Assembly (NCBI GenBank): GCA_018902845.1
Contig: JAHIPV010000001.1
Coordinates: 12,124-76,123 of the forward strand
Origin: Patescibacteria group bacterium
Lineage (GTDB): Bacteria > Patescibacteriota > Microgenomatia > UBA12405
Length of the DNA stretch: 64,000 bases
Direction: 5' to 3'
The translations under genes were made by a program, and so were the position numbers. Below the pieces are notes generated by a model. The model ran no database searches and had not been told where the DNA came from. It saw nothing but the letters and a program-made list of their open reading frames with translations. This document shows, piece by piece, positions 4,939 to 64,000 of this stretch (the first letter of the stretch is position 1; the number at the start of each line of letters is the position of its first letter).

Positions 4939-4947
4939 AGCGTCTCA

Positions 4948-5139
4948 CTATTTTCCTGTTCTCACTTTTACATTTTCCGGTCTTATTAACATTTCTCTTA
5001 ACGATTCCGCCCCAGTATTAGTGCCTCTGCATTGCGGACACACATCTCTTGGTGGAAAAATTTTTATCCCACAATCTTCACATACCTCACCAGCCAATCT
5101 GTATCTTTGTTGTTGTAATCTCCAATCCCCGATAATCAT
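4948..5139 (-). CDS. Small zinc-ribbon protein (CxxC...CxxC)
   Basis: 63 aa with CEDCG...CPQCRG. Terminal gene of the ECF sigma operon; possible anti-sigma or Zn-binding partner. Confidence 0.4.
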   Translation of the reverse strand: MIIGDWRLQQQRYRLAGEVCEDCGIKIFPPRDVCPQCRGTNTGAESLREMLIRPENVKVRTGK

Positions 5140-9874: not shown

Positions 9875-9985
9875 GCATAGCATGGCGATCTAATCGGGAA
9901 ACAGCTGTCATTGCGAGGAAATCACGTTTAAATTTCTTAATTTATTACGTGACGACGTGGCAATCCCGTCGGAATCGAAAACTAT
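9863..9985. repeat. GC-rich palindromic element (family A), intergenic; supplies the fba stop codon
   Basis: ctgtcatcgtgagca...ggcgatctaatcggg and ctgtcattgcgaggaa...cgtgacgacgtggcaatcccgtcgg. Same core as the elements at 17245, 57280 and 28930. Confidence 0.7.
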
Positions 9986-11006: not shown

Positions 11007-11330
11007 TAAATCATTGTGCTCTTCCTACTACTCTCGTCATATCATTCCCTGTCGGTAGCACCTTTTTAGGTGAAGCACTTTCTACCGGTTGTGGCCTTCT
11101 TAGCTCCGTACCCCCTCTATCTCCTACATCAGTCTCTACTCTCCCAAGCCTAAACGGCGGAAGAAAAGCTTCACATCTTCCCACTACTCCTTTCATCATA
11201 GCCATAAGTAATTATACATTATCTTTTATCTTTTTTCTCTTTTCTTCACCCCACTCCAAATTAATCAAAAACTTATCAATCTTCCTATCTTGCTTGAAAG
11301 AGTAGAGCTTTTAATTGATAATCAATTAAA

Positions 11331-12044: not shown

Positions 12045-14284
12045 TTTATTGTTGGTGTCGGGGTTGTTTTGGGCAAACATCTGACTCCATTCTCTGTTCC
12101 CTTAACAAAATAACCTTCTTTTCCACAAACCGTTGTCTTAACTATTCCCTCGGGCATTTGCCACTTCTCTTCTTCACGATTTTCTAGTATTTCCGTCATT
12201 ATTCTATTCCAAATCGGTGTTGCTCCCGAAATTCCCGAAGCTACCCAGCTCATCGGGCTACCATCGTTATTGCCTACCCAGCTGGCTACTAGCACTGACG
12301 GTGTCCATCCTATACACCAATTGTCTTTTAAATTATTAGTTGTACCGGTTTTTACCGCCACAGTCCTTTCCGGAATTTTTAACTTGGAATTAAAACCAAA
12401 AATAGGAGCCCTGGCCGTATCGTCACTCAAGGCTTCATTTATCAAAAAAGCTAATTCACTGGAAACAACCCTATTTTTGTCCGTCTCCTTTTCGTAAATT
12501 CTTTCGCCTAAATAATTTTCAACTCTTAAGATGGGATTAACTTCATTTTTTTTTCCTTCATTGGCAAAAATGCTATACGCCTCAGCCAGTTCAGTCATTT
12601 TTACTTCTCCCGCTCCCAGTGCCAAAGACAATCCAAATCTACTTCTATCTTTCCAGCTAGTGATCCCCATTTCTTCGGCCAAATCTATCATATCCATTAC
12701 TCCGTTTTTTTCTAGTAATTTTACCGACGGAATATTTAAAGACGAAGCTAGGGCGATTTTTAAAGTAACAGTTCCCATGTATTTCCCGTTGTAATTTTGT
12801 GGAGAATAGGGATCTTGTCCGGCAATTTGGTAAGTGATACGGTCATCGTCTATCAGTGAAGATAGTGTCCATCCTTTTTTCAAAGCTAAAAGGTAATTAA
12901 TCGGCTTAATTGAAGACCCCGGTTGTCTCAATGCCACTGTTACGTTGAATTTTCCGTCAACATCGTTCGTATAATAATCTTTTGATCCCACCATTGACAA
13001 TATATCTCCGTTTTTTGTGTCTATGATTAATACTGCTCCGTTGCTGATTTTCAATTTTAAGACTTTTGCTATTTCCTCTTTCACAATTTTTTCTGCCATT
13101 AATTGTTTTTCTCTGTCTAAGCTTGTAACAATTCTAAGTCCTGATTTTTCAATATTTTCAAAATTTAGTTTTTCTTCTAGATACTTTTTGACATAAAAAA
13201 CAAAATGTGGAAATTCTATATTTTTAATATTATTTTTTATTTTTATTTCTTCTCCTGACACCTTTTTTGCTATCTCTTCATTTATAAAACCGGCCTTCAC
13301 CATTTCATCTAACACTCTTTTTTGTCTTAACAATGCAAATTCCGGATTTTTTCCATAAGGAGAATAAGAGCTTGGCGCCGCTGGTAATCCTGCCAAAAAA
13401 GCTGCTTCAGCCAAATTTATTTCCCAAACGTTCTTATCAAAATATTTAAGAGATGCTTCTTGCACTCCGTAACTTTCTCCTCCATAAGCCACTTGGTTAA
13501 AATATCGTTCTAGTATTTCATTTTTTGGCAGTTTCCATTCCAAAGCTATCGCCAAAACTGCTTCTTTCAATTTTCTCTTCCATGTTTTTTCACTACCCAA
13601 AAATACATTTTTAACTACCTGTTGGGTTATGGTAGATCCTCCTCTTGGTGGGAACTGGTCTTTTCTTAAGTTGTAAAGTATCGCCTGAAAAACCCCTTTT
13701 AAAGAAAATCCCGAATGGCGGTAAAAATCTTTGTCTTCAATAGAAATTGTTGCCCATACTAAAGTTTGTGGAATTTTAGACAGGGGAATCCAAGTTCTAT
13801 TTTCATCTTCATAAAATTTGTAAAGTAAACTCCCGTCTCTATCCACTATTTTGCTTGACATTGGTGGGGGAGTATAAATTTTTTCAATATCGGGTAAATC
13901 AATCAAAATTTCTTTATAGAATATATAAATTCCAAAACTAAAAACTCCCATCAACAGCGACCCCAGTAACCAAACAATCCACATCCAATTTGCTTTTTTC
14001 TTTGCCTCGCCATTAATCCTTTTCTTTAATCTTTTCTCTTTGCCTCGCCAAAGTTTCCAACGACGGCGGGTTTTCCTCTTCTTCATTTTTCTTTTAAAAC
14101 AATTTTCCCAATTATTAAATTTCTTTATTCGTTTACTTATCTTGTTTTTCTTTGTTTTTTTATAATTCTTAATTCTTAACTCGTAATTCTTAATTAATAT
14201 CATTAACAGTCCAACAATAAGTTTTATTATCCTGTAAATCGGCCTTCCCATCCTTATCAAAAAACTTCTTATCCAAACAAACAT
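12041..14284 (-). CDS. Class A penicillin-binding protein (PBP1A-type transglycosylase/transpeptidase)
   Basis: GT51 motifs EDKDFYRHSGF, GGSTITQQ and RKLKEA; transpeptidase SSIKP...SLN...KTGT. Start uncertain: a basic N-terminal extension suggests an alternative start near 14086. Confidence 0.8.
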   Translation of the reverse strand: MFVWIRSFLIRMGRPIYRIIKLIVGLLMILIKNYELRIKNYKKTKKNKISKRIKKFNNWENCFKRKMKKRKTRRRWKLWRGKEKRLKKRINGEAKKKANWMWIVWLLGSLLMGVFSFGIYIFYKEILIDLPDIEKIYTPPPMSSKIVDRDGSLLYKFYEDENRTWIPLSKIPQTLVWATISIEDKDFYRHSGFSLKGVFQAILYNLRKDQFPPRGGSTITQQVVKNVFLGSEKTWKRKLKEAVLAIALEWKLPKNEILERYFNQVAYGGESYGVQEASLKYFDKNVWEINLAEAAFLAGLPAAPSSYSPYGKNPEFALLRQKRVLDEMVKAGFINEEIAKKVSGEEIKIKNNIKNIEFPHFVFYVKKYLEEKLNFENIEKSGLRIVTSLDREKQLMAEKIVKEEIAKVLKLKISNGAVLIIDTKNGDILSMVGSKDYYTNDVDGKFNVTVALRQPGSSIKPINYLLALKKGWTLSSLIDDDRITYQIAGQDPYSPQNYNGKYMGTVTLKIALASSLNIPSVKLLEKNGVMDMIDLAEEMGITSWKDRSRFGLSLALGAGEVKMTELAEAYSIFANEGKKNEVNPILRVENYLGERIYEKETDKNRVVSSELAFLINEALSDDTARAPIFGFNSKLKIPERTVAVKTGTTNNLKDNWCIGWTPSVLVASWVGNNDGSPMSWVASGISGATPIWNRIMTEILENREEEKWQMPEGIVKTTVCGKEGYFVKGTENGVRCLPKTTPTPTIN

Positions 14285-17101: not shown

Positions 17102-17764
17102 TCACAATTTTCCACTTTCCCTTTTTCCATGAAAAAAAGCATATCCTAATCCCACTTTTTCCCCTTTCATTTTTGGCTTCATATATAAATATTGCCCCCC
17201 GAAAGCCACCAGGTTCACCAACCACCAGAACAAATTAAACCGTTTGTCATCCCGAGCACGGTCGAGGGATCCAGTTGGAAATGTAAAAAGATCTAATTTA
17301 TGCCTCCATCGGGATTGCCACGTCACTTCGTTCCTCGCAATGACGGTTTGGTCTACCCATCTTTTATTTTCCCCCACAAACTTTTCATAAATATTTTCTT
17401 TATTTAAAACTGCTTTCAAAAACATTAAATCACTCGCACTTATTTTTGTCTGCTTAAACTTTGGTAGTTCCAAACTACTTTCATCCAGCCACATATTAAA
17501 ACAAAACTCATCTTTTCTTTCTTTTTTTCCAACTCTTCGGTGGGGGATTTTCTTAAACCTTATATAAAAGTTCAAAAACAATCTAGTCATCCACAGCCTA
17601 TTTTTCTTCGTTATTACTAATATGTCTATATCATCATTTTTCTTTGCCCCGCCGGCTCCAACCGACCCGCTCACACCCACAAACAAAATATTTTTAAATC
17701 CCAACAAATGCTTTTTTACTAGATTCTCTGTCTTTTTTAGTTTATTTTTACTATATTTATTCAC
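17102..17764 (-). CDS. Nucleotidyltransferase-domain protein (Pol-beta superfamily) with an in-frame repeat insertion
   Basis: GVSGSVGAGGAKKNDDIDILVI minimal nucleotidyltransferase motif. Segment ...DLFTFPTGSLDRARDDKR... is encoded by the GC-rich element at 17245-17347. Confidence 0.5.
   Translation of the reverse strand: MNKYSKNKLKKTENLVKKHLLGFKNILFVGVSGSVGAGGAKKNDDIDILVITKKNRLWMTRLFLNFYIRFKKIPHRRVGKKERKDEFCFNMWLDESSLELPKFKQTKISASDLMFLKAVLNKENIYEKFVGENKRWVDQTVIARNEVTWQSRWRHKLDLFTFPTGSLDRARDDKRFNLFWWLVNLVAFGGQYLYMKPKMKGEKVGLGYAFFHGKRESGKL
17245..17347. repeat. GC-rich palindromic element (family A) inside a CDS, in-frame
   Basis: tgtcatcccgagcacggtcgagggatccagttggaaatgtaaaaag joined to the reverse complement of tgtcattgcgaggaacgaagtgacgtggcaatcccgatgg. 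Ends are inverted copies of TGTCATYSCGAG. Confidence 0.75.
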
Positions 17765-28422: not shown

Positions 28423-29245
28423 TTATCAAATCAAGCGCAAGTCGATTCATTCCATTCACCTCCATATTAAGGGCAAAAATTCTTTCTATATTTCTTGCCC
28501 ATACCTCACCCCCAATTTTGTCATAAATAGATTTATTATAAAAAATTCTACCTGGATATTAAAAAACTCAAAAAAAATCTTTAGCTGCCCTAAACTCTCG
28601 CAACTCAAAAATCTAGGTATTTTAGGCAAAAAATATAAAATAAATATCACTAAATCCCCCAAAAATAGTTTTAGTATTAATCACAATACCAGCGTCATTC
28701 AGGTAACTGCCAATACGCTTTATCAACACCATCTCAAAAAACTTTTTGAAAAAAATCTCCGCCCTCTGGCTCTAGATTTAATCAAAAAAGAAATTAATGC
28801 TGTCATTCCCAATTCTTTTGTAGGGGCGACCCTTGCGGTCGCCCGCAGACATGGCAACCTGTCCGCCGTCAAAGAATCCCCCGCCTGCAACGTTGTAGCA
28901 ACTGCGGGCAGGCGTCGGAAAAAACCTGTCATCCCGAGCGTAGTCGAGGGATCCCGTCGGAACTGTAAAAGCTCACTCCTTCGTCCCACCAAAATTTCCG
29001 TTCGTAATCAAAAAACTCGTTTTGGATCCTGTTCAGCCAAGGGCAGTCTTTCCTTCAATTGGCAAATAATTTTTTTTCCGTCCGACAAATTCCGCCACAT
29101 TGTTCTTCATGAACTGGTTCATCTAAAAATAAAAAATCATTCCAAAAATTACTGGCACGCTCTCTCCCTTCTGGATCCCAACTGCAAAATCAACAATAAA
29201 TGGCTAAAAACTCACGGCAACCACCACTTTCTCATCAAGCCCTAA
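28388..29245 (+). CDS. YgjP-like (DUF45/SprT-like) metal-dependent hydrolase with a ~55-aa in-frame repeat insertion
   Basis: RFGSCSAKGSLSFNW...HIVLHELVHLKIKNHSKNYW (the WGSCS / HEL.H..NHS motifs of the YgjP family). Central segment ...GATLAVARRHGNLSAVKESPACNVVATAGRRRKKPVIPSVVEGSRRNCKSS... is encoded by the GC-rich element at 28799-28972. Confidence 0.6.
   Translation: MKQININNKPFTYQIKRKSIHSIHLHIKGKNSFYISCPYLTPNFVINRFIIKNSTWILKNSKKIFSCPKLSQLKNLGILGKKYKINITKSPKNSFSINHNTSVIQVTANTLYQHHLKKLFEKNLRPLALDLIKKEINAVIPNSFVGATLAVARRHGNLSAVKESPACNVVATAGRRRKKPVIPSVVEGSRRNCKSSLLRPTKISVRNQKTRFGSCSAKGSLSFNWQIIFFPSDKFRHIVLHELVHLKIKNHSKNYWHALSLLDPNCKINNKWLKTHGNHHFLIKP
28799..28972. repeat. Composite GC-rich palindromic element (family A) inside a CDS, in-frame
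   Basis: Hairpins ggcgacccttgcggtcgcc and cgcctgcaacgttgtagcaactgcgggcaggcg, followed by the core cctgtcatcccgagcgtagtcgagggatcccgtcggaactgtaaaag. Confidence 0.75.
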
Positions 29246-32874: not shown

Positions 32875-33532
32875 TATAATACCTCCACACTTAACTTACT
32901 GTTGCCTAATTGCAAAAAACCTCCAAAAGATTTCCAAATCCGAGGAGTTTTTAATTTGTCTAAAGCAACTAAGTTAAAAGTACCTTAACATCAATCAATG
33001 TGCGTTTTCATTAGTCATGATTGTTAGTATCAGAGGATGAAATCCTGATGATTTTGTTTACAAAATCTATTAGGATATTTTTTCAAAACTTTTTTCAGTT
33101 TATTTAAAACTGAACCCCTTGCAGATTAAAACCTGTCAAGGGTTGATACTAAGAGTTTGATCGTGGCTCAGGGTGAACGCTGGCGACGTGCCTAAGACAT
33201 GCAAGTCGAACGAGATTCGTATTTTACATAAGGAAATTACATAATAATTTTCTTGTGTAGAATACGATGACAGTGGCGAACGGGTGAGTAATAAGTACGA
33301 ACGTACCTCTAAGTGGAGCATAGCCTCGAGAAATCGTGGATAATACTCCATAGTCCTCGTATTTCATACAAGGAAATTCAAAGCACTAATATCTAAACTC
33401 AAAACTTTTTTGTTTTGGATTTTGAATATTTAGATTTTAAATTTATTTAGGATTTCGATATTAGAATTTAGGATTTTCTCGCATGGAATGCGAGGTAAAG
33501 ATTTATCGCTTAGAGAGCGGCGTACTCGCTAC

Positions 33533-33565
<33 letters not shown>

Positions 33566-34750
33566 GATGACGGCTACCGGCTCTTAGCGGAGGGTCCGGC
33601 ACAATGGGACTGAGACACGGCCCATACACCTACGGGTGGCAGCAGTTAGGAATATTGCGCAATGGACGAAAGTCTGACGCAGCGACGTCGCGTGTGGGAT
33701 GACGGCCTTCGGGTTGTAAACCACTTTTATTTCGTCATCATGGCGAGATGAATAAACAGCTACTAATTACGTGCCAGCAGTCGCGGTAATACGTAAGCTG
33801 TAAGCGTTACCCGGTTTTATTGGGCGTAAAGGGTCTGTAGGTGGTTTTTTAAGTCCTATTTCAAAGACTCCGACTTAATCGGAGAAAGGGGTAGGATACT
33901 GAAAGACTAGAGTTATATCGGGGTTACTGGAATTTATAGCGTAGGGGTAAAATCCGTGGATACTATAAAGAACACCAAGGGCGAAGGCGGGTAACTAGGT
34001 ATACACTGACACTGAAAGACGAAAGCTAGGGGAGCAAATCAGATTAGAGACCTGAGTAGTCCTAGCTGTAAACGATGTCTGTTAGTTCTACGAGCTTATG
34101 CTTGTGGGATGTAAGCTAACGCGTTAAACAGACCGCCTGGGGAGTATAGCCGCAAGGCCGAAACTCAAACGAATTGGCGGGGAGGCGCACAACCAGTGGA
34201 GCATGTGGTTTAATTCGATACGAAGCGATGAACCTTACCTGGGCTTGAAATCCTGTTTATGTTTTTCCCGAAAAGGAAAAACTCAGTGGCAGGACAGCTG
34301 TTGCATGGCTGTCGTCAGCTCGTGACGTGAGTTGTTCTCTTAAGTGAGGTAACGAGCGCAACCCCTATTCTGTGTTATTTTTTCACAGAAGACTGCTCAG
34401 CATTATTTTTGTTGGGAGGAAGGAGGGGACGACGTCAAGTCAGCATGATGCTTATGTCCAGGGCGACACACATCCTACAATGGGAAGTACAATGAGTTGC
34501 AATACCGCGAGGTGGAGCTAATCTATAAAACTTCCCTCAGTTGGGATTGCAGGCTGAAATTCGCCTGCATGAACTTGGAATTGGTAGTAATCGCAGATCA
34601 GCAGACTGCGGTGAATACGTTCTCGCCTCTTGCACACACAGCCCGTCAAATCAGCAAAGTTGAGGGTGCCCGAAGGACTCCGATCAATCGGAGGACTAAG
34701 GTAAATTCAGCGATGAGGGTTAAGTCGTAAATTGTTGCGACTCATGGAAG

Positions 34751-35471
34751 TAATTCCATGAACAAATCTGGCTGTATCGGGGAAATCTAAGTCCTAGTGT
34801 TAAAATTAGGATATGACAACCGCGAGGGAACCCGACCGTTTTTCTAAAAAACAACCGGGACTCCGTAGAGACTATACGCCAGCGCCTCAAATCAGTAAAT
34901 CTTATTTACTTGGAATTTTGCACGACGCCACAGAAAGAAAAACAACTTTTAGAATTAGTCAAAAAAGTGAAATTTTTGTCAAATTTATTGCCAAAGAAAT
35001 CAAAAGACTTGGTTCTGGAGCTTGGGTCTATAAAGAAGGGAAAAACAGAAATGTCTACGTTGTAGAATTTTCAAAAAGTTTTCTTAAAGGATTCAAGATA
35101 AAAACCAGACAAGACAAAATTGACTACATTCGAGGTTATTTTGATTCTGAGGGAGGTATTGCACATCATCCAAAAGTTCGTTTTTATATTTATTTTTCTC
35201 AAAAAGATATAAATGATCTTAAGGAAGTTAAGCAATGTCTCAAAGAATTAAATATTTCTTGTGGAAAAACGCATAATCCAAGCAAAAAAGTAGATCCTGA
35301 TTATTGGCGATTTTATATTTTAAGCAAATCTTACAAAGATTTTGCTAAAATTATTGGGTCCTTCCACCCAATCAAGAATCGTCTTTTGAGGATGAAGAGA
35401 TAGTCCGTACCCTTGGAAACAAGGGAATCGATTTTATTAGTTTTTTTAATAATTAAGTAAAATCAAATGAA
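34751..35471 (+). mobile_element. Intervening sequence (probable group I intron) in 16S rRNA at the E. coli ~1506 site, carrying a homing endonuclease ORF
   Basis: Insertion between conserved ...GGTTAAGTCGTAA and CAAGGTATCCGTACTGGAAGGTGCGGATGGATCACCTCCTT. Contains ORF 34813..35403. Confidence 0.6.
34813..35403 (+). CDS. LAGLIDADG-family homing endonuclease (intron-encoded)
   Basis: LLGILHDATE and IRGYFDSEGG are the two LAGLIDADG motifs of a single-chain homing endonuclease. The ORF lies wholly within the 16S insertion. Confidence 0.65.
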   Translation: MTTAREPDRFSKKQPGLRRDYTPAPQISKSYLLGILHDATERKTTFRISQKSEIFVKFIAKEIKRLGSGAWVYKEGKNRNVYVVEFSKSFLKGFKIKTRQDKIDYIRGYFDSEGGIAHHPKVRFYIYFSQKDINDLKEVKQCLKELNISCGKTHNPSKKVDPDYWRFYILSKSYKDFAKIIGSFHPIKNRLLRMKR

Positions 35472-44057: not shown

Positions 44058-44132
44058 AAAAAGAGGACCTGTCCTGTAGTTAAAAACGAAAAGAGGACCT
44101 GTCCTCCGTAGCTCCAGTTCACTGGAGCGAAG
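44058..44132 (-). terminator. Tandem intrinsic terminators for the minus-strand transcript
   Basis: Two copies of AAAGAGGACCTGTCCT. On the minus strand each forms a GAGGA-CAGG-TCCTC hairpin followed by a T-run; a CTCCAGTGAACTGGAG hairpin lies just upstream. Confidence 0.45.
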
Positions 44133-44464
44133 GAGGAGATGCTCAGGTATGACCCGAGGTCCAAAAAACGATTTAAAAAACTTACTACAAGCTTAACTTG
44201 CTTAAAACTTAATCTTTGAAAAACAAAACAAGTCAATTTTTCCAAAGTGTCGATTGTTTGTGATTCTACTCACTCTTAAATAATTCAAGAATCGAGACTC
44301 AAATTATCGTGTTCCAGTTTAGTTGACACCCTTACTTATTCCCTCTGGAATAGAAAATAAAAGGATGACTCTCTCGCTTAAGCCTAAGCTACAGCAAGAT
44401 TTAAATTGAAATTGCTACCGGTAGAATAACCGACACCACTTTCAACTCTCGAAAGATTAGCCCC
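44085..44464 (-). ncRNA. ssrA: Candidate tmRNA (ssrA), tentative
   Basis: Minus-strand 5' end GGGGCTAATCTTTCGAGAGTTG resembles the tmRNA 5' tRNA-like end. It is followed ~50 nt later by a short reading frame AAT TTC AAT TTA AAT CTT GCT GTA GCT TAG GCT TAA (tag ...NFNLNLAVA with tandem stops). Convergent with smpB. The 3' tRNA-like end could not be identified. Confidence 0.25.
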
Positions 44465-45683: not shown

Positions 45684-45738
45684 ACCTTCATTCTAACTGC
45701 TTATTGAAAATTGTAAATTGAAAATTGAAAATTAACTC

Positions 45739-46425
45739 ATGTCTTTTTTTCTGGATTTTTTATTTCCGTCTCGCTGTTATTCCTGTCAAAAAATCGGTCA
45801 GTATATTTGTCCAAAATGTCGGGTAAAACTAATTAACAAAGGCATTGATCCTTTTTTATCAAAAAAACTAGAAGCCTCTCTGTCTCTTTTTAAATATCAC
45901 CCGCCTCTAATCAAAGTTCTTCAAGATTTAAAATATCATTTTATTACCCATTTGGCCGATGAATTAGTTGAAATCGCAGTCAAAGAAATAGAAACAAGAT
46001 ATCCTTCCCTGCTCAAATACTGGCAAGCAAATAACTACCTATTAATTCCAATTCCATTACATCAAAAACGTCTAAACTGGCGCGGTTTTAATCAATCAGC
46101 CTTGCTGGCAAAAAAACTTGCTTACAATCTCAAGCTCCAATACTCAGACCAAATCCTTTTTAGGCTTAAATATACTCAACCACAAGCAAAAATCAAAAAT
46201 AAAAGTTTTCGCGCCACTAATATTTCCAATTCCTTTTCAGTTAGCACACTTGTCACCCCGCCGTGGCGGGGTCCCGTCGGAAATGTAAAAATTACATTTT
46301 CTCAATTTACTAACATAATTCTTTTTGACGATATTATCACCACCGGTTCCACCATAAAATCTGCCGTAGATACTCTAACAAAACACAATTTTAAATCAAT
46401 TTGGGCTCTTTCTTTGGCTGGTTAA
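45739..46425 (+). CDS. comFC: ComF-family protein (ComFC-like phosphoribosyltransferase with N-terminal zinc ribbon) carrying an in-frame repeat insertion
   Basis: CYSCQKIGQYICPKCR zinc ribbon and C-terminal PRTase motif ILFDDIITTGSTIKSA. Segment VSTLVTPPWRGPVGNVKITFSQF is encoded by the GC-rich element at 46250-46293. Confidence 0.65.
   Translation: MSFFLDFLFPSRCYSCQKIGQYICPKCRVKLINKGIDPFLSKKLEASLSLFKYHPPLIKVLQDLKYHFITHLADELVEIAVKEIETRYPSLLKYWQANNYLLIPIPLHQKRLNWRGFNQSALLAKKLAYNLKLQYSDQILFRLKYTQPQAKIKNKSFRATNISNSFSVSTLVTPPWRGPVGNVKITFSQFTNIILFDDIITTGSTIKSAVDTLTKHNFKSIWALSLAG
46250..46293. repeat. GC-rich palindromic element (family A) inside comFC, in-frame
   Basis: ttgtcaccccgccgtggcggggtcccgtcggaaatgtaaaaa. 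Compare gtcatcccgagcg..gtcgagggatcccgtcggaactgtaaaag at 28930. Confidence 0.7.
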
Positions 46426-52320: not shown

Positions 52321-53472
52321 TCATACTTTGTCAAGAACCAACTCCAATCTTGCCTCTCTTTCCAATTTATCAATATTTTTCACAAATTCACCTTTTTTGG
52401 CTTTACAATATCCTGCAATTCCAACCATGGCCGCATTATCGGTATTTAATTCTTTTTTAAACGGCATAAAAATCTGTAAATCATTTTTTCTTGCTAATTT
52501 TCTCAAATCCTTTCTTAATCTCAAATTCGCCATCACTCCACCCGCCCCCATCAAGCTTTTCGGCTTAGTCATATCAATAGCCCTTTGAAGTTTTATTAGC
52601 AAACAATCAAAAACCGCCCTCTGATAACTTGACGCCAAATCATAAATTTTTTCTGCCACTCTCTCTTCTTTCCACTTTCTGATTTTGTAATAAAAACTGG
52701 TTTTTAATCCGGAAAATGAAAAATTGCAATTTTTGAATTTGCTCATTGGTCTTGGTAAATCCAAAAAATTTTCATCTCCATCTTCAGCTAACTTTTCTAT
52801 TATTGGTCCTCCCGGATATCCTAACCCCAACATTTTTGCCGCCTTATCCAAAGCCTCTCCGGCCGCATCATCTAGCGTTTCTCCAATAATTTCATATTTT
52901 CCAATCCCTTTCATCAAAACAAGTTTTGTATGTCCGCCAGAAACTGTTAATACCAAGGAGGGGAATTTTATTTTTCTTTCTGGTTTTCCTCTACTGTTTT
53001 TCAAAAAATTAGACAAAATATGTCCTTCGACATGGTTAACGGCTACTATTTTTTTACCGTATTTTTTAGCTAATTCTTTTGCTACCTCAATTCCCACCCC
53101 CAAAGCAATAGCCAGCCCCGGTCCTTGTGTCACTGCCACCACATCAATTTTTTCCATTCTCTCGTCAATTATTTTTCTTATTTTTTCATTTGCTTGCCCG
53201 CCGTAGCCTTTGGCGAAGGAGGGTAAATTAGAATTTGTTTGTAATTTGAGATTTGGTGCTTGTGATTTACAGGATATGGCCAGTTTTAAGGCTTGTCCTA
53301 AAACTGGCCATATCCTGTCCCTGTGCGCTCTTTTGGCAATATCCGGCACCACTCCTCCCCATTTTTTGTACAAATCTACTTGTGATGAAATCACATTAGA
53401 CAAAATTCTGTCATTTTCCAAGACTGCCACACAAGTATCATCGCAACTGGTTTCAATGGCCAATATTCTCAT
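52321..53472 (-). CDS. tsaD: tRNA N6-adenosine threonylcarbamoyltransferase TsaD (Kae1/YgjD family), with an in-frame ~35-aa insertion
   Basis: MRILAIETSCDDTCVAVLE, VAVNHVEGH and GGVMAN motifs. Extra segment ...KLQTNSNLPSFAKGYGGQANEK... coincides with the repeat element at 53205-53340. Confidence 0.85.
   Translation of the reverse strand: MRILAIETSCDDTCVAVLENDRILSNVISSQVDLYKKWGGVVPDIAKRAHRDRIWPVLGQALKLAISCKSQAPNLKLQTNSNLPSFAKGYGGQANEKIRKIIDERMEKIDVVAVTQGPGLAIALGVGIEVAKELAKKYGKKIVAVNHVEGHILSNFLKNSRGKPERKIKFPSLVLTVSGGHTKLVLMKGIGKYEIIGETLDDAAGEALDKAAKMLGLGYPGGPIIEKLAEDGDENFLDLPRPMSKFKNCNFSFSGLKTSFYYKIRKWKEERVAEKIYDLASSYQRAVFDCLLIKLQRAIDMTKPKSLMGAGGVMANLRLRKDLRKLARKNDLQIFMPFKKELNTDNAAMVGIAGYCKAKKGEFVKNIDKLEREARLELVLDKV
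53205..53340. repeat. Family B element (GCGAAGGAGG + AT-rich tail + 20-bp inverted repeat) inside tsaD, in-frame
   Basis: gcctttggcgaaggagggtaaattagaatttgtttgtaatttgagatttgg followed by the perfect inverted repeat acaggatatggccagtttta / taaaactggccatatcctgt. Related copy at 54300-54400. Confidence 0.6.
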
Positions 53473-53509
53473 GTTGGAAATTATACTACTTATGGTTTAT
53501 TATTAATCT

Positions 53510-54082
53510 ATGCCTGTTCAAAAAAACAAACAATCTTTTTTCTTTCTTTTTCTAATTGCCCTTTTTTTTATTCTTTCTTCTATTTATGTCTATTCCTATC
53601 TTTCTTCAAAAATATCAAAAGAAATGGTTGTTGATAACAGTTCAAGTTTTTATATCCCAACTGTCACCAACATTCCGGAGCCATCCATCTTTCCGTCTAT
53701 TACGCCAGCCGGTATAACCGGACCATATCTAAAAACTTTTTATTCAGATATTGACAATTTTGAAATCACATATTTTTCTACTCGCCAATTATATGAAGAC
53801 AAAGATGGCACCTCTAACCGCTATGTTTTTGCCAAAACCGGAGGTACAAACTTTGTAGTTCATGTTGGTGAAAGTTGGTCATGGATTCATCCGGACAGGC
53901 AATTTACCAATGATTTAAAAATTGCCGGCTTTGACACTTTCAGATACGATACAACTTCTCAGACAATTTTTGATTTACAAAAAGACGATACAAAATATAC
54001 TCTTCAATGCATTCACAATGGTATTGAGTCTCTCAAATCCGAATGCCTCGATTTTGTCCAAAGCTTCAAGCTAACAAACTAA
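53510..54082 (+). CDS. Hypothetical membrane-anchored protein
   Basis: N-terminal TM (FFFLFLIALFFILSSIYVYSYL) and ~150-aa extracytoplasmic domain. No family recognised. Confidence 0.4.
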   Translation: MPVQKNKQSFFFLFLIALFFILSSIYVYSYLSSKISKEMVVDNSSSFYIPTVTNIPEPSIFPSITPAGITGPYLKTFYSDIDNFEITYFSTRQLYEDKDGTSNRYVFAKTGGTNFVVHVGESWSWIHPDRQFTNDLKIAGFDTFRYDTTSQTIFDLQKDDTKYTLQCIHNGIESLKSECLDFVQSFKLTN

Positions 54083-55301
54083 ACCCAATCTCTCTTTTTC
54101 TTTTTCCTTTATACTCAAACTCAACTTTCACAATTCTTGCTTTTTTCTTTAATTTTCTAAAATTTTTATCTCCCATATTCTCCGGCCATTCAACACAGGC
54201 AATCACGCCGGTTTTAAATAAATCCAAAAATCCAATCTCATCAAACTCAAATTCCTTACTTAATCTATACAAATCCATATGCAAAAATCTTTTATAGTTT
54301 TGCTTGTCCTCCATAGCTTTAGCGAAGGAGGAAATTTTAATATTTGAATTTTGAAGTTGTTTTGAATTTGAGATTTTAGATTTTAGATTTAATTTGTATT
54401 CATTACAAATAGTAAAAGTAGGGGACACAATCCTTTTTTTTATCCCCAAAATTTTTCCAATCGCTCTGCTAAAAACTGTTTTTCCTGCTCCTAGCTCTCC
54501 ACTCAAACAAAACACAACCAGCCGACTGTCATTCCGACCGAATCCGCCAGCTGGCAAAAAAGGATCACCCTGAGCCCCCCCAGCGTCATCCTGAGCGTAG
54601 CGAAGGATCCCCCCGGACAACATCTTCTTAAAAATAAACCTCGCAATTCTCCCTGTTTCTTTTTCTGAATTCGATATAAATTTTTTGGCCGAGCCAATTA
54701 CCATGTCTCCTTTTCTCAAAACTTTCACTTCCGCTTCGGTTGCATCAATCACCGTTGACGGTTTATTCCTTGGTAATCTTCCTGCATCCGCTACTAGATC
54801 AACCATATTTTTTTTCTTTTTTGACAAAATATTCAAAAACGATTTAACCGAATAATGCGGTGATCTCCCCGAAAGATTAGCCGATGTTGCCGTAATTGGT
54901 TTTTTTAAAATATTTACTAAATCCAAAATATATTTACTCTCGGGGATTCTTATTCCCAAAGTCCCATCTTCCGCCTCTATTCCCTTTGCAACTTTTCGTT
55001 TTCCTTTATTCACCACCGTAAAAGGCCCGGGTAATAAATTCTTATAAATTCTTTTAGCCATTTCTGATAAATCCACATATTCTTCGGCCATTTTTTGGCT
55101 AGTTACTGCTATCGAAATTGCCTTTCCTGTCCATCTATTCTTAAAAGCCAGTAATTTATCTACGGCTTTTTGGTTACAAGCATCCACGGCCAAAATATAA
55201 ACAGTATCCGAAGGAAACAGCACCAATCCTCCGTTTTTTATCACTCTAATCGTTTCTTTCAAAACACTTTTATGGTTTTTTGCTATATCCAAAATTTTCA
55301 C
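54066..55301 (-). CDS. Fused L-threonylcarbamoyladenylate synthase (TsaC/YrdC domain) - TsaE (YjeE P-loop ATPase) protein, with two in-frame repeat insertions
   Basis: N-terminal YrdC domain (NGGLVLFPSDTVYILAVDACNQKAVDKL...GIRIP...ATSANLSG). C-terminal TsaE domain (LSGELGAGKTVFSRAIGK...SPTFTI). The linker ...RYAQDDAGGAQGDPFLPAGGFGRNDSRL... is encoded by element 54536-54618, and ...NSNIKISSFAKAMEDKQ... by the AT-tailed element 54300-54400. Confidence 0.7.
   Translation of the reverse strand: MKILDIAKNHKSVLKETIRVIKNGGLVLFPSDTVYILAVDACNQKAVDKLLAFKNRWTGKAISIAVTSQKMAEEYVDLSEMAKRIYKNLLPGPFTVVNKGKRKVAKGIEAEDGTLGIRIPESKYILDLVNILKKPITATSANLSGRSPHYSVKSFLNILSKKKKNMVDLVADAGRLPRNKPSTVIDATEAEVKVLRKGDMVIGSAKKFISNSEKETGRIARFIFKKMLSGGILRYAQDDAGGAQGDPFLPAGGFGRNDSRLVVFCLSGELGAGKTVFSRAIGKILGIKKRIVSPTFTICNEYKLNLKSKISNSKQLQNSNIKISSFAKAMEDKQNYKRFLHMDLYRLSKEFEFDEIGFLDLFKTGVIACVEWPENMGDKNFRKLKKKARIVKVEFEYKGKRKREIGFSLLA
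54300..54400. repeat. Family B element (GCGAAGGAGG + tandem gattttagattt tail) inside tsaC-tsaE, in-frame
   Basis: gctttagcgaaggaggaaattttaatatttgaattttgaagttgttttgaatttgagattttagattttagattt. Compare 53205-53260 and the 16S V2 expansion 33395-33470. Confidence 0.6.
54536..54618. repeat. GC-rich palindromic element (family A) inside tsaC-tsaE, in-frame
   Basis: ctgtcattccgaccgaatccgccagctggc...caccctgagcccccccagcgtcatcctgagcgtagcgaaggatccccccgg. Confidence 0.75.
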
Positions 55302-55350: not shown

Positions 55351-57645
55351 ATGGACAAGCGATACGATCCCGGTTCCGAACAAAAAATTTACCGGCTTTG
55401 GGAAAAATCGGGCGCATTCACTCCCACGGTACCAAAAAACAAGGCAAGGCAAAGCCCTCCTTTTACCATAATCCTTCCCTTACCAAACGCCAGCGATCCA
55501 ATGCACATGGGTCATGCTATGTTTGTTATCCAAGATATACTTTGTCGTTGGCATCGCATGATGGGTGAGCCGGTTTTGTGGCTTCCGGGTGCAGACCATG
55601 CCGGTATCGAAACCCAATATATTTTTGAAAAAAGATTATCGGAAACAGGCAAATCCAGATTCGATTATGATAGAAAAACTCTTTATAAGCTGATTTGGGA
55701 TTATGTTGAAGAAAACCGAAAAATTAATCAGTTTCAGTTAAAGGAACTTGGTTTTTCTTTGGACTGGACTCGTTATCATTACAGTTTAGAACCAAACATT
55801 GTCAATCAAGTCTTAAAAACTTTTAGGAAACTTTACCAAGACGACTTGCTTTATAGGGCCGAAAGAATCGTTAATTATTGCACTCATTGCGGTACTGCTT
55901 TTTCCGATTTGGAAATTGACCACGTCGAAAGAGATGATTTTCTCTATTATCTTGATTACGGTCCTATAAAAATTGCCACCACTAGGCCCGAGACTATTTT
56001 TGTCGACGTAGCGGTGGCTGTCAATCCAAAAGACAAAAGATACAAAAACTTGATTGGCAAAAAAGCTATCATTCCCCTGATAAACAAAGAAATTCCCATT
56101 ATAGCCGATGATCTGGTTGAGATTGATTTTGGCACCGGTGCCCTAAAAATTACTCCGGCTCATGACTCTACCGATTTTGAAATCGGTCAAAAACACCAGC
56201 TACCAACTATTTCCTGCATAAAACTTTCGGGAAAGATGGTAAACACTATTCCTGAAATTGACGAACTCTATCCCTCCCAAGCCCGAAAAAAAACAATCGA
56301 AATGCTGGAAAAACAAGCCAAGCTAGTCAAAACCGAACCCTTGCATCACACCATTGGTATTTGTTATCGCTGTAAAAACGTTATAGAATCTTTACCGGTT
56401 CCTCAATGGTATGTAAAAACAAAACCCTTAGCCAAGCCGGCCATAGAGTCAGTCAAAAAGGGAGAAACCAAAATTTTTCCGCCAAGATTCAAAAAAACTT
56501 ATCTCGATTGGATGGAAAACATCCGAGATTGGAACATTAGCCGTCAAATTGTTTGGGGTCCACAAATTCCGGCCTATTATTGTCTTGATTGTAATCCGAC
56601 TATCCAGATCAATTTCATCGACAAAAAAGGAAAAATTATTTCCGGTTTATATCAGGATCTAAAAAATAAATATCAATTCCAGCAAATCAAAAAAGGCCTA
56701 CAAACCCTAAATGCTCCTATTACGGCGGATTATTTCTTAAAAAATTCAAAAAACATTTGTCCCAAATGCAAGGTTAGTCACGTTTTGCAAGAAACCGACA
56801 CCTTTGACACTTGGTTTTTATCCGGACAATGGCCCCTAACTACCTTAGGATTCAACGTCGACAATCCGGCCAACAGCTCGCCAGATTTTGACTATTTTTA
56901 CCCCACCAGTGTTTTAGACACTCTTTGGGATATTTTATTTTTTTGGGTTGGCAGAATGATGATTTTTGGTTTTTATTTAGCAAAAAAAACACCTTTCAAA
57001 ACCGTTCACCTGCACGCCAAAGTAACAGATGAAAAAGGTCAAAAAATGAGCAAGTCAAAAGGCAATGTTATTAATCCCAGTAGTACGGTTCAAAAATACG
57101 GCGCCGATGCTTTGCGTTTGGCCTTAGTTTATGGCACGGCTCCAGCTAGCAATATCTCTCTTTCAGACAAAAAAATCGAAGCTATGAGGAATTTTACTAA
57201 CAAAATTTGGAATGCTTCCCGTTTTGTCAAAATCATTATCAACCGCTTCAAAGAGCAAAACCCAAACTTAGAAATCAATCTGTCATTGCGAGGACTCCGA
57301 CTTCACGTCGGAGGACGTGGCAATCCCGATGATGATGAAATCCTGTCTAATCTAAACCAAATCATCAAATCAACTACTGCCAATCTAGAAAAATACCGTT
57401 TTGGTCAAGCCTCAGAAGACTTATATCAATTTTTTTGGCATCAATTTTGTGATGTTTACATAGAAAAAATCAAAGACAGAAAAGAAGATGTAATTCCAGT
57501 TTTGATGCATGTCCTAATAACCAGTCTCAAACTTCTTCATCCCTTTATTCCTTTTGTCACCGAAACTATTTATCAGGATTTCAAACAAGAATTTAGTTTA
57601 AAAAAGGATTTATTAATCACTTCTCTGTGGCCAAAAGCAAAATGA
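55351..57645 (+). CDS. valS: Valine--tRNA ligase (compact form) with an in-frame repeat insertion
   Basis: HMGHA (HIGH), PGADHAGIETQ and KMSKSKGNVI motifs. Segment EINLSLRGLRLHVGGRGNPDDDEIL is encoded by element 57280-57327. Confidence 0.8.
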   Translation: MDKRYDPGSEQKIYRLWEKSGAFTPTVPKNKARQSPPFTIILPLPNASDPMHMGHAMFVIQDILCRWHRMMGEPVLWLPGADHAGIETQYIFEKRLSETGKSRFDYDRKTLYKLIWDYVEENRKINQFQLKELGFSLDWTRYHYSLEPNIVNQVLKTFRKLYQDDLLYRAERIVNYCTHCGTAFSDLEIDHVERDDFLYYLDYGPIKIATTRPETIFVDVAVAVNPKDKRYKNLIGKKAIIPLINKEIPIIADDLVEIDFGTGALKITPAHDSTDFEIGQKHQLPTISCIKLSGKMVNTIPEIDELYPSQARKKTIEMLEKQAKLVKTEPLHHTIGICYRCKNVIESLPVPQWYVKTKPLAKPAIESVKKGETKIFPPRFKKTYLDWMENIRDWNISRQIVWGPQIPAYYCLDCNPTIQINFIDKKGKIISGLYQDLKNKYQFQQIKKGLQTLNAPITADYFLKNSKNICPKCKVSHVLQETDTFDTWFLSGQWPLTTLGFNVDNPANSSPDFDYFYPTSVLDTLWDILFFWVGRMMIFGFYLAKKTPFKTVHLHAKVTDEKGQKMSKSKGNVINPSSTVQKYGADALRLALVYGTAPASNISLSDKKIEAMRNFTNKIWNASRFVKIIINRFKEQNPNLEINLSLRGLRLHVGGRGNPDDDEILSNLNQIIKSTTANLEKYRFGQASEDLYQFFWHQFCDVYIEKIKDRKEDVIPVLMHVLITSLKLLHPFIPFVTETIYQDFKQEFSLKKDLLITSLWPKAK
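57280..57327. repeat. GC-rich palindromic element (family A) inside valS, in-frame
   Basis: tgtcattgcgaggactccgacttcacgtcggaggacgtggcaatcccg. Near-identical core to 9905-9975 and 17300-17345. Confidence 0.8.
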
Positions 57646-59379: not shown

Positions 59380-59527
59380 ACATTATACAACAATTATACA
59401 ACAAATCAACAACTTGGTGGTGCTCTTGCTAACCCAAAAGCGGGCTTGTCCACCATAGCTTTATGTGAAGGTGGAAGAATGTTTTAAGGTTATAAACCTT
59501 TTCCTTTTTTGTCGCTTTCGCCTTACT

Positions 59528-59572
59528 CGTCATCCTGAGCCTGTCGAAGGATCCCCTAGGAATTGAAAAACC
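59528..59572. repeat. GC-rich palindromic element (family A), intergenic upstream of trpS
   Basis: cgtcatcctgagcctgtcgaaggatcccctaggaattgaaaaacc. Compare 62207-62246 and 54580-54618. Confidence 0.75.
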
Positions 59573-62148: not shown

Positions 62149-64000
62149 TCATTCCTGTTCTTCATCTCCAATCTCAATAAGTTCTCCAAAAACCCAACCT
62201 TCAACTTGCCCTGAGCCTGTCGAAGGATCAAGTTGGATTTTTACCCAGCCATCTTTTTCTTCTAAAGAAGGGAAACTTTGACCATCAGTCACCTTGGCTA
62301 AAACCTCTCCTTTCAAAGACGGCTCGCTTCTTACCACAACCCAACTTCCCTCATCGGCAGTAATCGTCGCCAGAGTTTCTCCGGCAACCGCGCCTTTGAC
62401 TTTTCCCTCTTCTTTTTCCGGAGTGTTGAAAGTATAGTAAGCATCATAAACATAGTTTTTGTTTTGGGACATGACTTCAAAATAATAAAGTTTTCCGGGT
62501 TCCAAATCTTTCAGCTCCATCCGGTGTTCCTTTACCCGTTTGTCGGATTGAATTTTTTTGCCGTATGAGGTGTTAAGACCGTAGTTAACCACTGAAGTAG
62601 CGTAGTGGTTGGTTCCCCAAACAACCATTGCTGAGGTTGAGTTAACCTCTTCTATTTTTACAAAAAGAATCTTGGTTGGTTCGTTGTCAAAGACAATGGC
62701 TATAAATGTGCTGGTGGCGATCCTTAAACGGGTGGCTAAATTCTGGGCTTCTTCCGAAGCCGGCTTGCGGATTGATTCTCTACCGGTTTGCCAGGCAGTT
62801 GCCAGCCTGGATGTTTGTTGGCTGATTGTTTTTACTCCTTCTCCAACATTAGAGGCTAAAGCCTTAACTCCGTCAGTCGTCTTGTTGATGGTATTTCCTA
62901 CTGTCCTATTAACAACCTCCGCTCCATTAGCCAGAGCTAAAAGTCCATCTCTAATTACCCCCGATGTTTTTTGGGTCAGATTAAAGTAGCCCCTGGCCAA
63001 AAACAGCTTTCGTTCTTCATTTTTTTGTTTTCTTGAGGCAAGGAACTGGTTGGTTGTTTTGCCAACCGCACCAGCCACAGCACTAACGCCATTCTTTATC
63101 TGATTGCCGACAAAAGCCAGTCCCTGGCCGATTTTTCCGGCTAAGAATTTAGCGCTATCAACTGTTTTCCACCAAAGATTGGCAATTCCGGTAAAAATTT
63201 TACCAATCGCTTCGGCAATTACGGATGGTTCTTGTAACTCTTCAGGGATAACAATACCCTGTTCTTTGATAACTTCTTCTATCTTTTCTCTGGGAATCCC
63301 TTCTTTTTCCAATTCTTCAATTACTTCTTCAACTTCAGGAATTTGAGCAATCTCTTCATAAGTTTTAATGGTTAAAGTAAAAGAAGAAGAACTACCTCCA
63401 TTACTTGCTTTATCTTTGCCGGTTAAAGTTATTCTGTAAACACCCAAAGGCAAGTCGGTTGTGGGCGTGTAGGAAAAGCTGGAATATTTATTACTGGTTT
63501 GTTTGCTGTTATCAGTGATTTTTGAACCATCACTACTCCAATAAAGTTCACTGATATTAACCGTCGCCAAAGTATGGAGGTTGTAAACTCCAAGATAATT
63601 TCTTTTTTCAAATTTAATTTCTACCTCTTTAGGTCCTGAAGCAACTTTCAAACCATCCCCTGTCAGCGAGTCGGTTGTTTTTCCATAAATAGTCGGTGTT
63701 TTATCAGTGGTAGCTAGGCTATCAGCAGAAGAAGTGTCATTTATTTGTGTTGCTTCAACGCTCGGCCCGTTTCTGTCAACAAACAAAGTTCTTGATTCTT
63801 CTTTCTCATTGCCGGCGTTATCCACCGCCTTGACTTTCCAATATCTTTTGCCCTCTTTTAATTTGCCATCATTATTTCCTGAATTGGAATCAGAACTCCA
63901 ATCGTTTGAAGATTTAGTGTAAACAGAAATATAATTGTTGGTGGTATCAGAATCACTAAAGTTTTCATAATGAATTAAATATTTACTGGTTTCATAATCG
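62149..64000 (-). CDS. Large secreted/surface protein with Ig-like/FN3-like repeats and a C-terminal SH3b domain; 5'-partial, with an in-frame repeat insertion
   Basis: Listed ORF starts with GTG at 63825, but the frame stays open to 64000 (...YWKVKAVDNAGNE..., typical of Ig-like surface repeats). C-terminal GWVKIQLDP...GWVFGELI SH3b-like. STGSGQVEG is encoded by element 62207-62246. Confidence 0.55.
   Translation of the reverse strand, partial: DYETSKYLIHYENFSDSDTTNNYISVYTKSSNDWSSDSNSGNNDGKLKEGKRYWKVKAVDNAGNEKEESRTLFVDRNGPSVEATQINDTSSADSLATTDKTPTIYGKTTDSLTGDGLKVASGPKEVEIKFEKRNYLGVYNLHTLATVNISELYWSSDGSKITDNSKQTSNKYSSFSYTPTTDLPLGVYRITLTGKDKASNGGSSSSFTLTIKTYEEIAQIPEVEEVIEELEKEGIPREKIEEVIKEQGIVIPEELQEPSVIAEAIGKIFTGIANLWWKTVDSAKFLAGKIGQGLAFVGNQIKNGVSAVAGAVGKTTNQFLASRKQKNEERKLFLARGYFNLTQKTSGVIRDGLLALANGAEVVNRTVGNTINKTTDGVKALASNVGEGVKTISQQTSRLATAWQTGRESIRKPASEEAQNLATRLRIATSTFIAIVFDNEPTKILFVKIEEVNSTSAMVVWGTNHYATSVVNYGLNTSYGKKIQSDKRVKEHRMELKDLEPGKLYYFEVMSQNKNYVYDAYYTFNTPEKEEGKVKGAVAGETLATITADEGSWVVVRSEPSLKGEVLAKVTDGQSFPSLEEKDGWVKIQLDPSTGSGQVEGWVFGELIEIGDEEQE
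62207..62246. repeat. GC-rich palindromic element (family A) inside the surface-protein gene, in-frame
   Basis: cttgccctgagcctgtcgaaggatcaagttggatttttac. Confidence 0.7.

Follow-up and report, generated by a model that had tools for sequence, protein, structure and literature searches.

Until now, selfish repeats that lie in frame within essential genes have been viewed as peculiar to Rickettsia. We describe a GC-rich hairpin of 30 nucleotides (nt) that is found across many phyla. Two copies, each followed by an AT-rich tail, are embedded in frame in tsaD and in a tsaC-tsaE fusion gene, which are adjacent, essential genes for tRNA modification, of a Patescibacteria group bacterium whose genome was recovered from groundwater. 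The stretch analyzed, hereafter called the window, comprises 64,000 nt of contig JAHIPV010000001.1 (assembly GCA_018902845.1, positions 12,124 to 76,123). Its GC content is 35%, and its closest protein matches are from Patescibacteria, mainly Shapirobacteria-like metagenome-assembled genomes (MAGs). Our preferred reading, to which we assign a probability of roughly 0.6, is that the inserts are a composite repeat: a mobile, selfish or at most mildly useful hairpin of about 30 nt, joined to an AT-rich array with units of about 7 nt and lodged in tolerant loops.

Rickettsia palindromic elements are about 100-150 bp in length, palindromic throughout, and confined to Rickettsia. According to one paper, citing Ogata et al., they occur in frame in unrelated and often essential genes and are translated as fold-compatible surface segments (PMC10969869). 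The window inserts resemble the elements described there in being inserted in frame with the host frame left open. They differ in having a conserved unit of only 30 nt (stem of 6 bp), tails without palindromic structure, a distribution over many phyla, and accompanying heptamer arrays. Repetitive extragenic palindromes (REPs) and bacterial interspersed mosaic elements are GC-rich imperfect palindromes of 20-40 nt. They are scattered, can form clusters or tandem runs, frequently lie close to the ends of genes, and are associated with RAYT transposases. Most REPs lie outside genes and are specific to one species, and their GTAG is located 5' of the hairpin. The element described here is likewise a short, GC-rich imperfect palindrome with many copies, four of them in the 64 kb of the window. 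It also has GTAG or ATAG, located inside its internal loop. However, it is not mainly extragenic (46% of copies are in open reading frames, ORFs), and its sequence is conserved across phyla.

The GC clusters of yeast mitochondria are short GC-rich hairpins in an AT-rich genome that are mobile, horizontally exchanged, and able to merge, and that occupy spacers and some genes (PMC4478555). Our hairpins are similarly scattered in an AT-rich genome. Lang et al. are said to have described in 2014 'byp' elements that are related to mitochondrial GC clusters and skipped by the ribosome. Both GC clusters and byps are organellar and have different sequences, and in the present case open frames argue for translation. 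Heptanucleotide repeats, which include the short tandemly repeated repetitive (STRR) sequences of cyanobacteria and the TAACTGA repeats of Beggiatoaceae, Cyanobacteria, and Bacteroidetes, have a patchy distribution across phyla, and the mechanism of their origin is unknown (PMC4679880, PMC4692102). The same kind of 7-nt tandem unit makes up the window tails and one arm of an expansion in variable region V2 of the 16S rRNA. However, published heptamer arrays are mostly intergenic and have not been linked to a conserved hairpin, whereas those studied here are in phase with the ends of a 30-nt element, and two are presumably translated. The core hairpin lacks defining features of each of these closest analogues.

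A hairpin conserved across phyla

The consensus core comprises about 30 nt (GCTTG-YCCKCC-RTA-GC-TTTA-GC-GAA-GGAGGR). A 30-nt pattern derived from the two window copies matched 104 exact stretches in collections holding one representative genome per species, and the matches are distributed over many phyla. The hosts include many classes of Patescibacteria, Gamma- and Alphaproteobacteria, Bacteroidota, Verrucomicrobiota, Planctomycetota, Acidobacteriota, Kiritimatiellia, Lentisphaerae, and one MAG of Nanoarchaeia (a DPANN archaeon). Core-bearing loci range in GC content from 28% to 69%, and the sequences flanking the core are unrelated between genomes. A shorter version of the pattern matched 12 viral contigs.

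The conserved unit is 30-31 nt in length, with a 6-bp stem and an internal loop, GUA...GAA, that is constant across copies. The base preceding CC and the base following GGAGG form C-G in 56 copies, T-A in 35, T.G in 10, and C.A in 1. A covariance model built from exact copies, termed R1, recovers diverged copies with stems such as CCGCC/GGCGG, CCACC/GGTGG, and CCATCC/GGATGG, and with apical helices of 2 to 7 bp. In the R1 alignment, 97% of cells are paired, three stem positions have changed on both sides (CG/UA/UG, UA/GC/AU), and the observed covariation was reached by none of 500 shuffles. Although the model itself shaped this alignment, compensatory changes can be seen plainly in the raw sequences. 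These comparisons show a nearly invariant hairpin in many phyla that is kept by compensatory changes, a conservation that the first-pass annotation of the window had overlooked.

No core or tail matched an Rfam family at gathering thresholds or at permissive thresholds with E up to 5. A promoter and terminator scan of the region found nothing above shuffles at the elements. Searches with the consensus core returned two weak partial matches only, both to Sinorhizobium plasmids, among annotated plasmids, and none among annotated phages, so these collections supply no name for it. A full-text search of the literature retrieved no description of the core sequence, its translated words, or in-frame repeats in the Candidate Phyla Radiation (CPR). 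The core appears to be undescribed.

Within the window, R1 identifies four core copies, all on the plus strand, of which two are intergenic and additional to those in tsaD and tsaE. Copy 3 (44097-44137; 33.9 bits, E = 1.5e-7) has an apical helix enlarged to 7 bp and abuts the 3' end of a transfer-messenger RNA (tmRNA). The tmRNA alignment ends at 44131, and the core directly follows the 3' strand of the acceptor stem. This tmRNA is matched by Rfam at 63.5 bits, and ARAGORN makes no call. On the tmRNA strand, copy 3 is followed by a terminator-like run of U residues, CUCUUUUCGUUUUU, and its 5' half is partly duplicated at 44060-44079 (region 44060-44142). Copy 4 (59444-59475; 31.7 bits, E = 6e-7) has the compensatory stem CCACC/GGTGG.

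Cores are also found beside tRNA genes in other phyla: one is 2 nt from a tRNA-Arg gene, one overlaps the first bases of a tRNA-Ser gene, one touches a tRNA-Gly gene, and one is 22 nt from another tRNA-Gly gene (loci L020 2714-2822, L049 1594-1706, L056 2441-2542, and L094 7601-7727). ARAGORN called no tRNA across the core of locus L078. One Peribacteria MAG has five copies (L028, L032, L039, L040, and L083) that share much longer flanks, ctcccttccccc before the core and atggggggaagggccgggg after it. The core in this genome is therefore part of a larger, genome-specific repeat. In the Nanoarchaeia MAG, three cores occur in tandem.

Two inserts in tsaD and tsaC-tsaE

Both host genes lie on the minus strand, with a small plus-strand ORF between them. 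The tsaD gene (52321-53472; 383 aa) matches the Pfam TsaD family (E = 9e-79) in two stretches. The tsaC-tsaE fusion (54066-55301; 411 aa) matches Sua5_yciO_yrdC at aa 20-198, and its TsaE match is broken in two by the second insert. Both Pfam domains are present in 120 of the 120 listed relatives of TsaC-TsaE, so the fusion is clade-wide.

Each insert consists of a GC-rich core and an AT-rich period-7 tail, both located by their plus-strand sequence, through which the reading frame of the host gene runs uninterrupted. In tsaD, the core (53192-53223; R1 43.3 bits, E = 3e-10) is read on the minus strand as PSFAKGYGGQA, and the tail (53224-53268; lag-7 autocorrelation 0.45) as KSQAPNLKLQTNSNL. 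The tsaE insert extends from 54291 to 54395. Its core (54302-54332; 55.6 bits, E = 8.5e-14) is read on the minus strand as SSFAKAMEDKQ, and its tail (54333-54395; lag-7 autocorrelation 0.62) is the array AAATTTT AATATTT GAATTTT ... AGATTTT AGATTTT, which is in phase with the end of the core. The core motif GCYTTWGCGAAGGAGGR has two matches in the window, as compared with 0.05 expected by chance; these are at 54316-54332 and, with one 1-nt indel scored as two mismatches, at 53207-53223. The first-pass annotation had proposed that an AT-tailed element lies inside both genes and that both segments belong to a single repeat family. Both proposals are supported.

The segments are insertions when compared with orthologues, as had also been suggested. 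Most relatives have a TsaD of 341 aa, in which the 'IDVIAVTxGPGLA' strand comes straight after the 'EALKRA' helix, and the base form of TsaE has only 4-6 residues at the insert loop. An alignment with TsaD in the PDB covers aa 1-58 and 106-363 of the window protein and leaves about 38 residues surplus. Many other relatives have unrelated low-complexity inserts of 13-50 aa at the same spot in TsaD. Comparable hotspots of length variation in the clade are the linker of TsaC-TsaE and the loop that follows 'NEY' in TsaE.

An origin of the inserts in assembly chimerism or low coverage has a negligible probability. The exact TsaD protein recurs on at least 14 contigs, which stem from several samples and were built with several assemblers (ENA, NCBI, JGI, and Logan assemblies), and four of these contigs are 100% identical to the window along 3.4 kb. 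The same sequence on so many independent contigs rules out such an error, and we found no point in its favor. The first-pass annotation also raised the possibility of variation in repeat copy number by slippage. Six strain-level contigs, all of them consensus sequences, are identical across both tails, so this idea gained no support, and a phase-variable simple-sequence repeat acting as a contingency locus was rejected on the same grounds. An intein was rejected as well, because a Hint domain requires at least 130 aa and characteristic junction residues, whereas the inserts encode only 28-35 aa of low complexity with no Pfam domain inside.

Relatives of the window species retain the inserts to different degrees. 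A strain with 99% identity (L011) has both inserts unchanged. Two contigs of the sister species (L001 and L004) are about 81-85% identical to the window at the nucleotide level. The tsaD gene of the sister species has a short insert only. In L001, the tail and much the greater part of the core are missing from it, and yet it keeps TAATTTACGCTC..GCAAGGCT at the window insert site (13/15, p ~0.003); the sequence in common with the window at this site is TAATTTAC[C/G]CTC..GC(C)AA(A)GGCT. In the tsaE insert of L001 and L004, the AT-rich tail is retained and the GC core is missing. A more distant relative, L012, is without the TsaE insert. The window tsaD tail aligns with the L001 tsaE tail at 35/42 positions without gaps (score 49, null maximum 35). 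This match, together with the core remnants in relatives, identifies the tsaD and tsaE inserts as true paralogues in both tail and core. Both inserts would thus predate the split of the window species from its sister species and have decayed differently since. The two genes share one orientation and only 1 kb separates them, so local copying between them is the simplest, and probably the correct, source of the second copy.

The tsaD insert is extended by a perfect inverted repeat of 20 bp, which as mRNA would form a 22-bp hairpin (-37.5 kcal/mol, z = -8.6). One arm (53299-53318) is native sequence, the codons for DRIWPVL, and is conserved in L001 and L012. The other arm (53269-53288) is an inverted copy of these codons that is absent in L001 and L012 and is found in the window lineage only. 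Because the native arm is present in orthologues that lack the other arm, the repeat is a local inverted duplication. The repeat noted in the first-pass annotation is thus real and perfect, but its interpretation as a footprint of transposition does not hold, and neither arm is the terminus of an element. The repeat is most simply explained by snap-back synthesis, that is, a template switch, which would have copied 15-20 nt of native codons after nucleation at a pre-existing TTTTA..TAAAA.

AlphaFold models are consistent with intact domains that have acquired loose appendages. The TsaD model has a mean predicted local distance difference test (pLDDT) score of 89, with values below 50 at residues 69-91. 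In TsaC-TsaE, pLDDT is below 50 at residues 308-332, which lie between two strands, and at residues 231-257, which are encoded by other GC-rich words in the linker; the folds are otherwise confident. Since the low scores coincide exactly with the element-encoded residues, the inserts are modeled as floppy, disordered surface loops.

Two other TsaD proteins contain the core at different positions. In P0097, it is read as SSFAKATKDKG at aa 152, in a second loop, and in the protein of L111 as LLRQSYGGQA at aa 353, near the C-terminus. These different positions indicate that TsaD was struck independently several times.

Copies within protein-coding genes

Among core copies, 46% are within ORFs of at least 200 codons, whereas for positions drawn at random from these loci the figure is 70%. 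Coding sequence thus contains fewer cores than expected, yet is far from free of them. In-frame hosts identified by Pfam include HSP70/DnaK (E = 6e-191), UvrB, enolase, Fe/Mn superoxide dismutase, phosphoglycerate kinase, QueA, and another TsaD. The sense strand of in-gene copies is mostly the complement of the hairpin strand (39 versus 14), which yields the peptide '(P/S)SFAKATEGK(P/Q)'. One possible reason for this strand preference is avoidance of an internal AAGGAGG, which resembles a Shine-Dalgarno sequence. In several hosts, a block of exactly 10 codons seems to have been added ahead of a proline; phosphoglycerate kinase, with SHLGR-PSFAKATAGK-PKG, is an example. Genes for class-I aminoacyl-tRNA synthetases in two different Patescibacteria (L045 and L114) have PSFAKATEGKP at the same position (...SVHLExW|P...), and this shared position is either inherited or a recurrent target.

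Heptamer arrays and 7-nt direct repeats

A strong period-7 signal is about 10 times commoner beside the core than in control sequence of the same loci. The heptamer units track host composition and include gagtcgg, gactttt, ggtattg, agccaac, tcgttcg, and gatttag. The 7-mers that flank the core on its two sides are identical in at least six of seven positions in 13 of 112 copies, and perfectly so in five, whereas in 2000 trials with permuted pairings the number of such copies averaged 0.5 and never exceeded 4. The boundaries of the best direct repeats coincide exactly with the 30-nt unit. Some 7-nt direct repeats are outside arrays, such as the gaaattt on each side of the core in L082, and cores in tandem are separated by exactly one 7-mer. 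Such flanks are what would be expected from duplication of a 7-bp target, or from in-phase insertion into existing arrays.

Arrays with this period also occur in the window apart from the core. Under strict criteria, period 7 dominates, with four arrays, one of them the tsaE tail, versus none in shuffled sequence and 0-2 for other periods. Three arrays with other units and no core nearby are located at 11200-11251 (TTATCTT-like), 14144-14204 (TAATTCT), and 45686-45749 (TGAAAAT x4). The last of these is in the spacer upstream of a ComF-like gene. The first-pass annotation held that the units of the tails recur in promoter-region spacers; a spacer array is indeed present here, but TGAAAAT is a different unit.

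Expansions in 16S rRNA

The 16S rRNA gene of the window (33145-34772) has two expansions relative to the Rfam model: 121 nt replace a 4-nt loop at the tip of helix h10 in V2, and 36 nt replace a 3-nt loop at h6. The h6 and h10 stems are intact around the expansions, and both expansions fold as hairpins. The V2 expansion (about 33365-33486, plus strand) has a 3' arm of period-7 RGATTTT units (lag-7 autocorrelation 0.61) and no GC core. This arm and the tsaE tail are about 79% identical over 57 nt (score 47), as compared with a maximum score of 31 for 359 other AT-rich windows and shuffles, whereas the tsaD tail has no significant match to the V2 expansion. The resemblance to V2 that had been claimed for both elements is thus upheld for the tsaE tail, but not for the tsaD tail or the core. 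It is a real likeness, at the level of a shared type of heptamer unit. Because the V2 insert is without a core and matches one tail only, its common origin with the tails is unproven.

Helices h6 and h10 accept insertions in Escherichia coli without a growth defect and correspond to the eukaryotic expansion segments es1 and es3 (PMC2441807). The window expansions are likewise at insertion-tolerant helix tips, with the flanking helices preserved. Insertions of at least 100 nt are found in 42% of CPR 16S genes (PMC9297842). Most insertions in CPR rRNA genes are thought to be introns of at least 0.5 kb, whereas those of the window are 36 and 121 nt in length and have no coding capacity.

The bases of the h6 and h10 expansions (33212-33272 and 33352-33498) are alike on both arms, with TCGTATTT(T)ACATAAGGAAATT versus TCGTATTTCATACAAGGAAATT. 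This likeness scores 29 and is inside the null range, whose maximum is 34. The sister species (L131) also has an expansion at h6, which has diverged, and its contig ends 115 nt into the 16S gene; on the contig of the closely related strain, V2 is identical to that of the window. An ORF begins 40 nt after the 16S gene, and the remaining 29 kb of the window contain neither 23S nor 5S rRNA, so the rRNA genes are apparently unlinked.

Origin of the element

We infer that the module is mobile and selfish, or at most mildly useful. It would have entered the TsaE and TsaD loops before the window species and its sister species diverged, and copies would be kept only where the frame stays open and 28-35 extra residues can hang off the protein surface. 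Indels, slippage, and, in tsaD, template switching may then have reshaped the inserts. The module may travel with heptamer arrays or seed them. The h6 and h10 expansions of 16S rRNA would occupy sites that are tolerant for the same reason, with the h10 insert containing the same kind of heptamer array.

Several observations weigh against a mobile repeat. Neither terminal inverted repeats nor a consistent duplication of the target was found, nor any transposase, although no systematic domain scan of the window was made, and a miniature inverted-repeat transposable element was rejected because flanks are unrelated between copies and no terminal inverted repeats exist outside the hairpin. The 7-nt repeat is present at only about 12% of copies, and copies inside genes resemble additions of precisely 30 nt that lack it. 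No pair of filled and empty sites between very close strains was found for the core family, and the sole strain-level difference involves another word family and a recombination patch. The near-invariant loop across phyla suggests a functional constraint rather than pure selfishness, as might be expected of a terminator or of an RNA or DNA motif that binds a protein, and a run of U residues follows the tmRNA-adjacent core on the tmRNA strand. In addition, translation of the inserts is predicted from open frames only, and copying between tsaD and tsaE may have gone either way.

Taken at face value, the constraint on the loop would make the hairpin a functional RNA or DNA motif, such as a protein recognition site, terminator, or stability element, that is useful at gene ends and whose in-gene copies are by-products. 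The invariant GUA...GAA loop and covarying stems fit this idea, as do the T.G to C.A asymmetry (10 versus 1), which points to one functional strand, and the U-run behind the core at the tmRNA 3' end. Intergenic copies have a mild excess of neighboring gene 3' ends (51 versus 30), and several abut tRNA genes. However, their orientation relative to neighboring genes is inconsistent, without polarity. Moreover, 46% of copies are within long ORFs, no Rfam family matches, and the 7-nt flanking duplications and tandem copies one 7-mer apart point to insertion events. We therefore consider such a function unlikely as the whole explanation, and it would in any case be compatible with mobility and not opposed to it. 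A role specific to t6A (N6-threonylcarbamoyladenosine) synthesis is slightly less likely still. TsaD and TsaE are partners in the TsaBDE system, and PDB entries 6n9a and 6nak are among the structure-database matches of the window proteins. Loops or mRNA hairpins in both genes might tune contact between these partners of one complex, or jointly regulate translation or mRNA stability of the two genes. Both inserts are intact and identical on all strain-level contigs, the 22-bp mRNA hairpin is unusually stable, and the core loop is strongly conserved. Yet the loops are predicted to be disordered, the sister species has a decayed tsaD tail and tsaE core, and the same core is found in many unrelated proteins and spacers, with GC-rich words in five other ORFs of the window.

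The idea that the loops are home-grown, having expanded by replication slippage of AT-rich simple sequence so that their likeness reflects mutational bias, we regard as improbable. It would account for two sites that are length-variable hotspots with many unrelated low-complexity inserts, for period-7 arrays elsewhere in the window, and for inserts that change mainly by indels. However, a GC-rich, covarying hairpin of 30 nt that is identical in more than 100 unrelated genomes cannot come from AT-rich units, and the ungapped 35/42 match between the window tsaD tail and the L001 tsaE tail goes beyond composition. A slippage origin is thus largely refuted for the core.

A more specific form of the mobile repeat is tentative but worth stating. 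The 30-nt hairpin might itself be a very small mobile element of very broad host range, extending to many bacterial phyla, DPANN archaea, and viruses, that duplicates 7 bp on insertion and leaves tandem 7-nt footprints, which are the heptamer arrays. Repeated insertion and loss at one spot would produce arrays of the STRR and TAACTGA types, with units that follow host composition. In genes, perhaps only rare duplication-free events of 30 nt, exactly 10 codons, would survive, giving the '(P/S)SFAKATEGK(P/Q)' loop. Footprints of this kind would include the AT-rich tails of both t6A genes and perhaps also the array in 16S V2. The exact 7-nt repeats at element boundaries and the in-phase arrays offer a testable route to explaining bacterial heptanucleotide repeats. 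Further questions are what moves the core, what keeps it constant, and how much it contributes to length variation of protein loops and rRNA helices in uncultured lineages.

Other GC-rich words in the window

Five other ORFs of the window contain GC-rich words that are read in frame. In the gene for valyl-tRNA synthetase, the word (57281-57328) separates the catalytic domain from the anticodon-binding domain. Three words in a row are present in a YgjP-like peptidase (28820-28965), and the others are in a ComF-like protein (46250-46289), a nucleotidyltransferase ORF (17245-17345), and an SH3/Ig surface protein (62204-62240). Further GC-rich words are located at 9906-9975 and 59528-59565. The first-pass annotation called it unusual that the module is embedded in proteins of one pathway, t6A synthesis. 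Given these ORFs, and DnaK, UvrB, and enolase elsewhere, targeting of one pathway is not supported. The t6A pair is best explained by gene adjacency and local copying.

Word families other than the core hairpin include GTCATYSYGAG...GSRATCC, with compensatory stem differences, GGGGCGACCC..GGTCGCCC, and GTCATTGCGAGG..GGCAATCC, all scattered in the AT-rich window. Such words distort and inflate protein alignments and hypothetical-protein calls in MAGs, and a model of the R1 type can flag them. Cores are enriched about fourfold near words of the first family, and since one locus drives this signal, we did not use it as evidence.

Two words of that first family (GTCATYC...GGATC type; repeat families D1/D3) are in the TsaC-TsaE linker (54513-54624) and are read as ILRYAQDDAGGAQGDPFLPAGGFGRNDS. 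The L011 strain is without them (4931-4973). All 50 nucleotide differences between its tsaC-tsaE and that of the window are within coding nt 608-816. Excision of the words was ruled out by this clustering of all differences in about 200 nt, which indicates that the words were replaced by a divergent allele through recombination.

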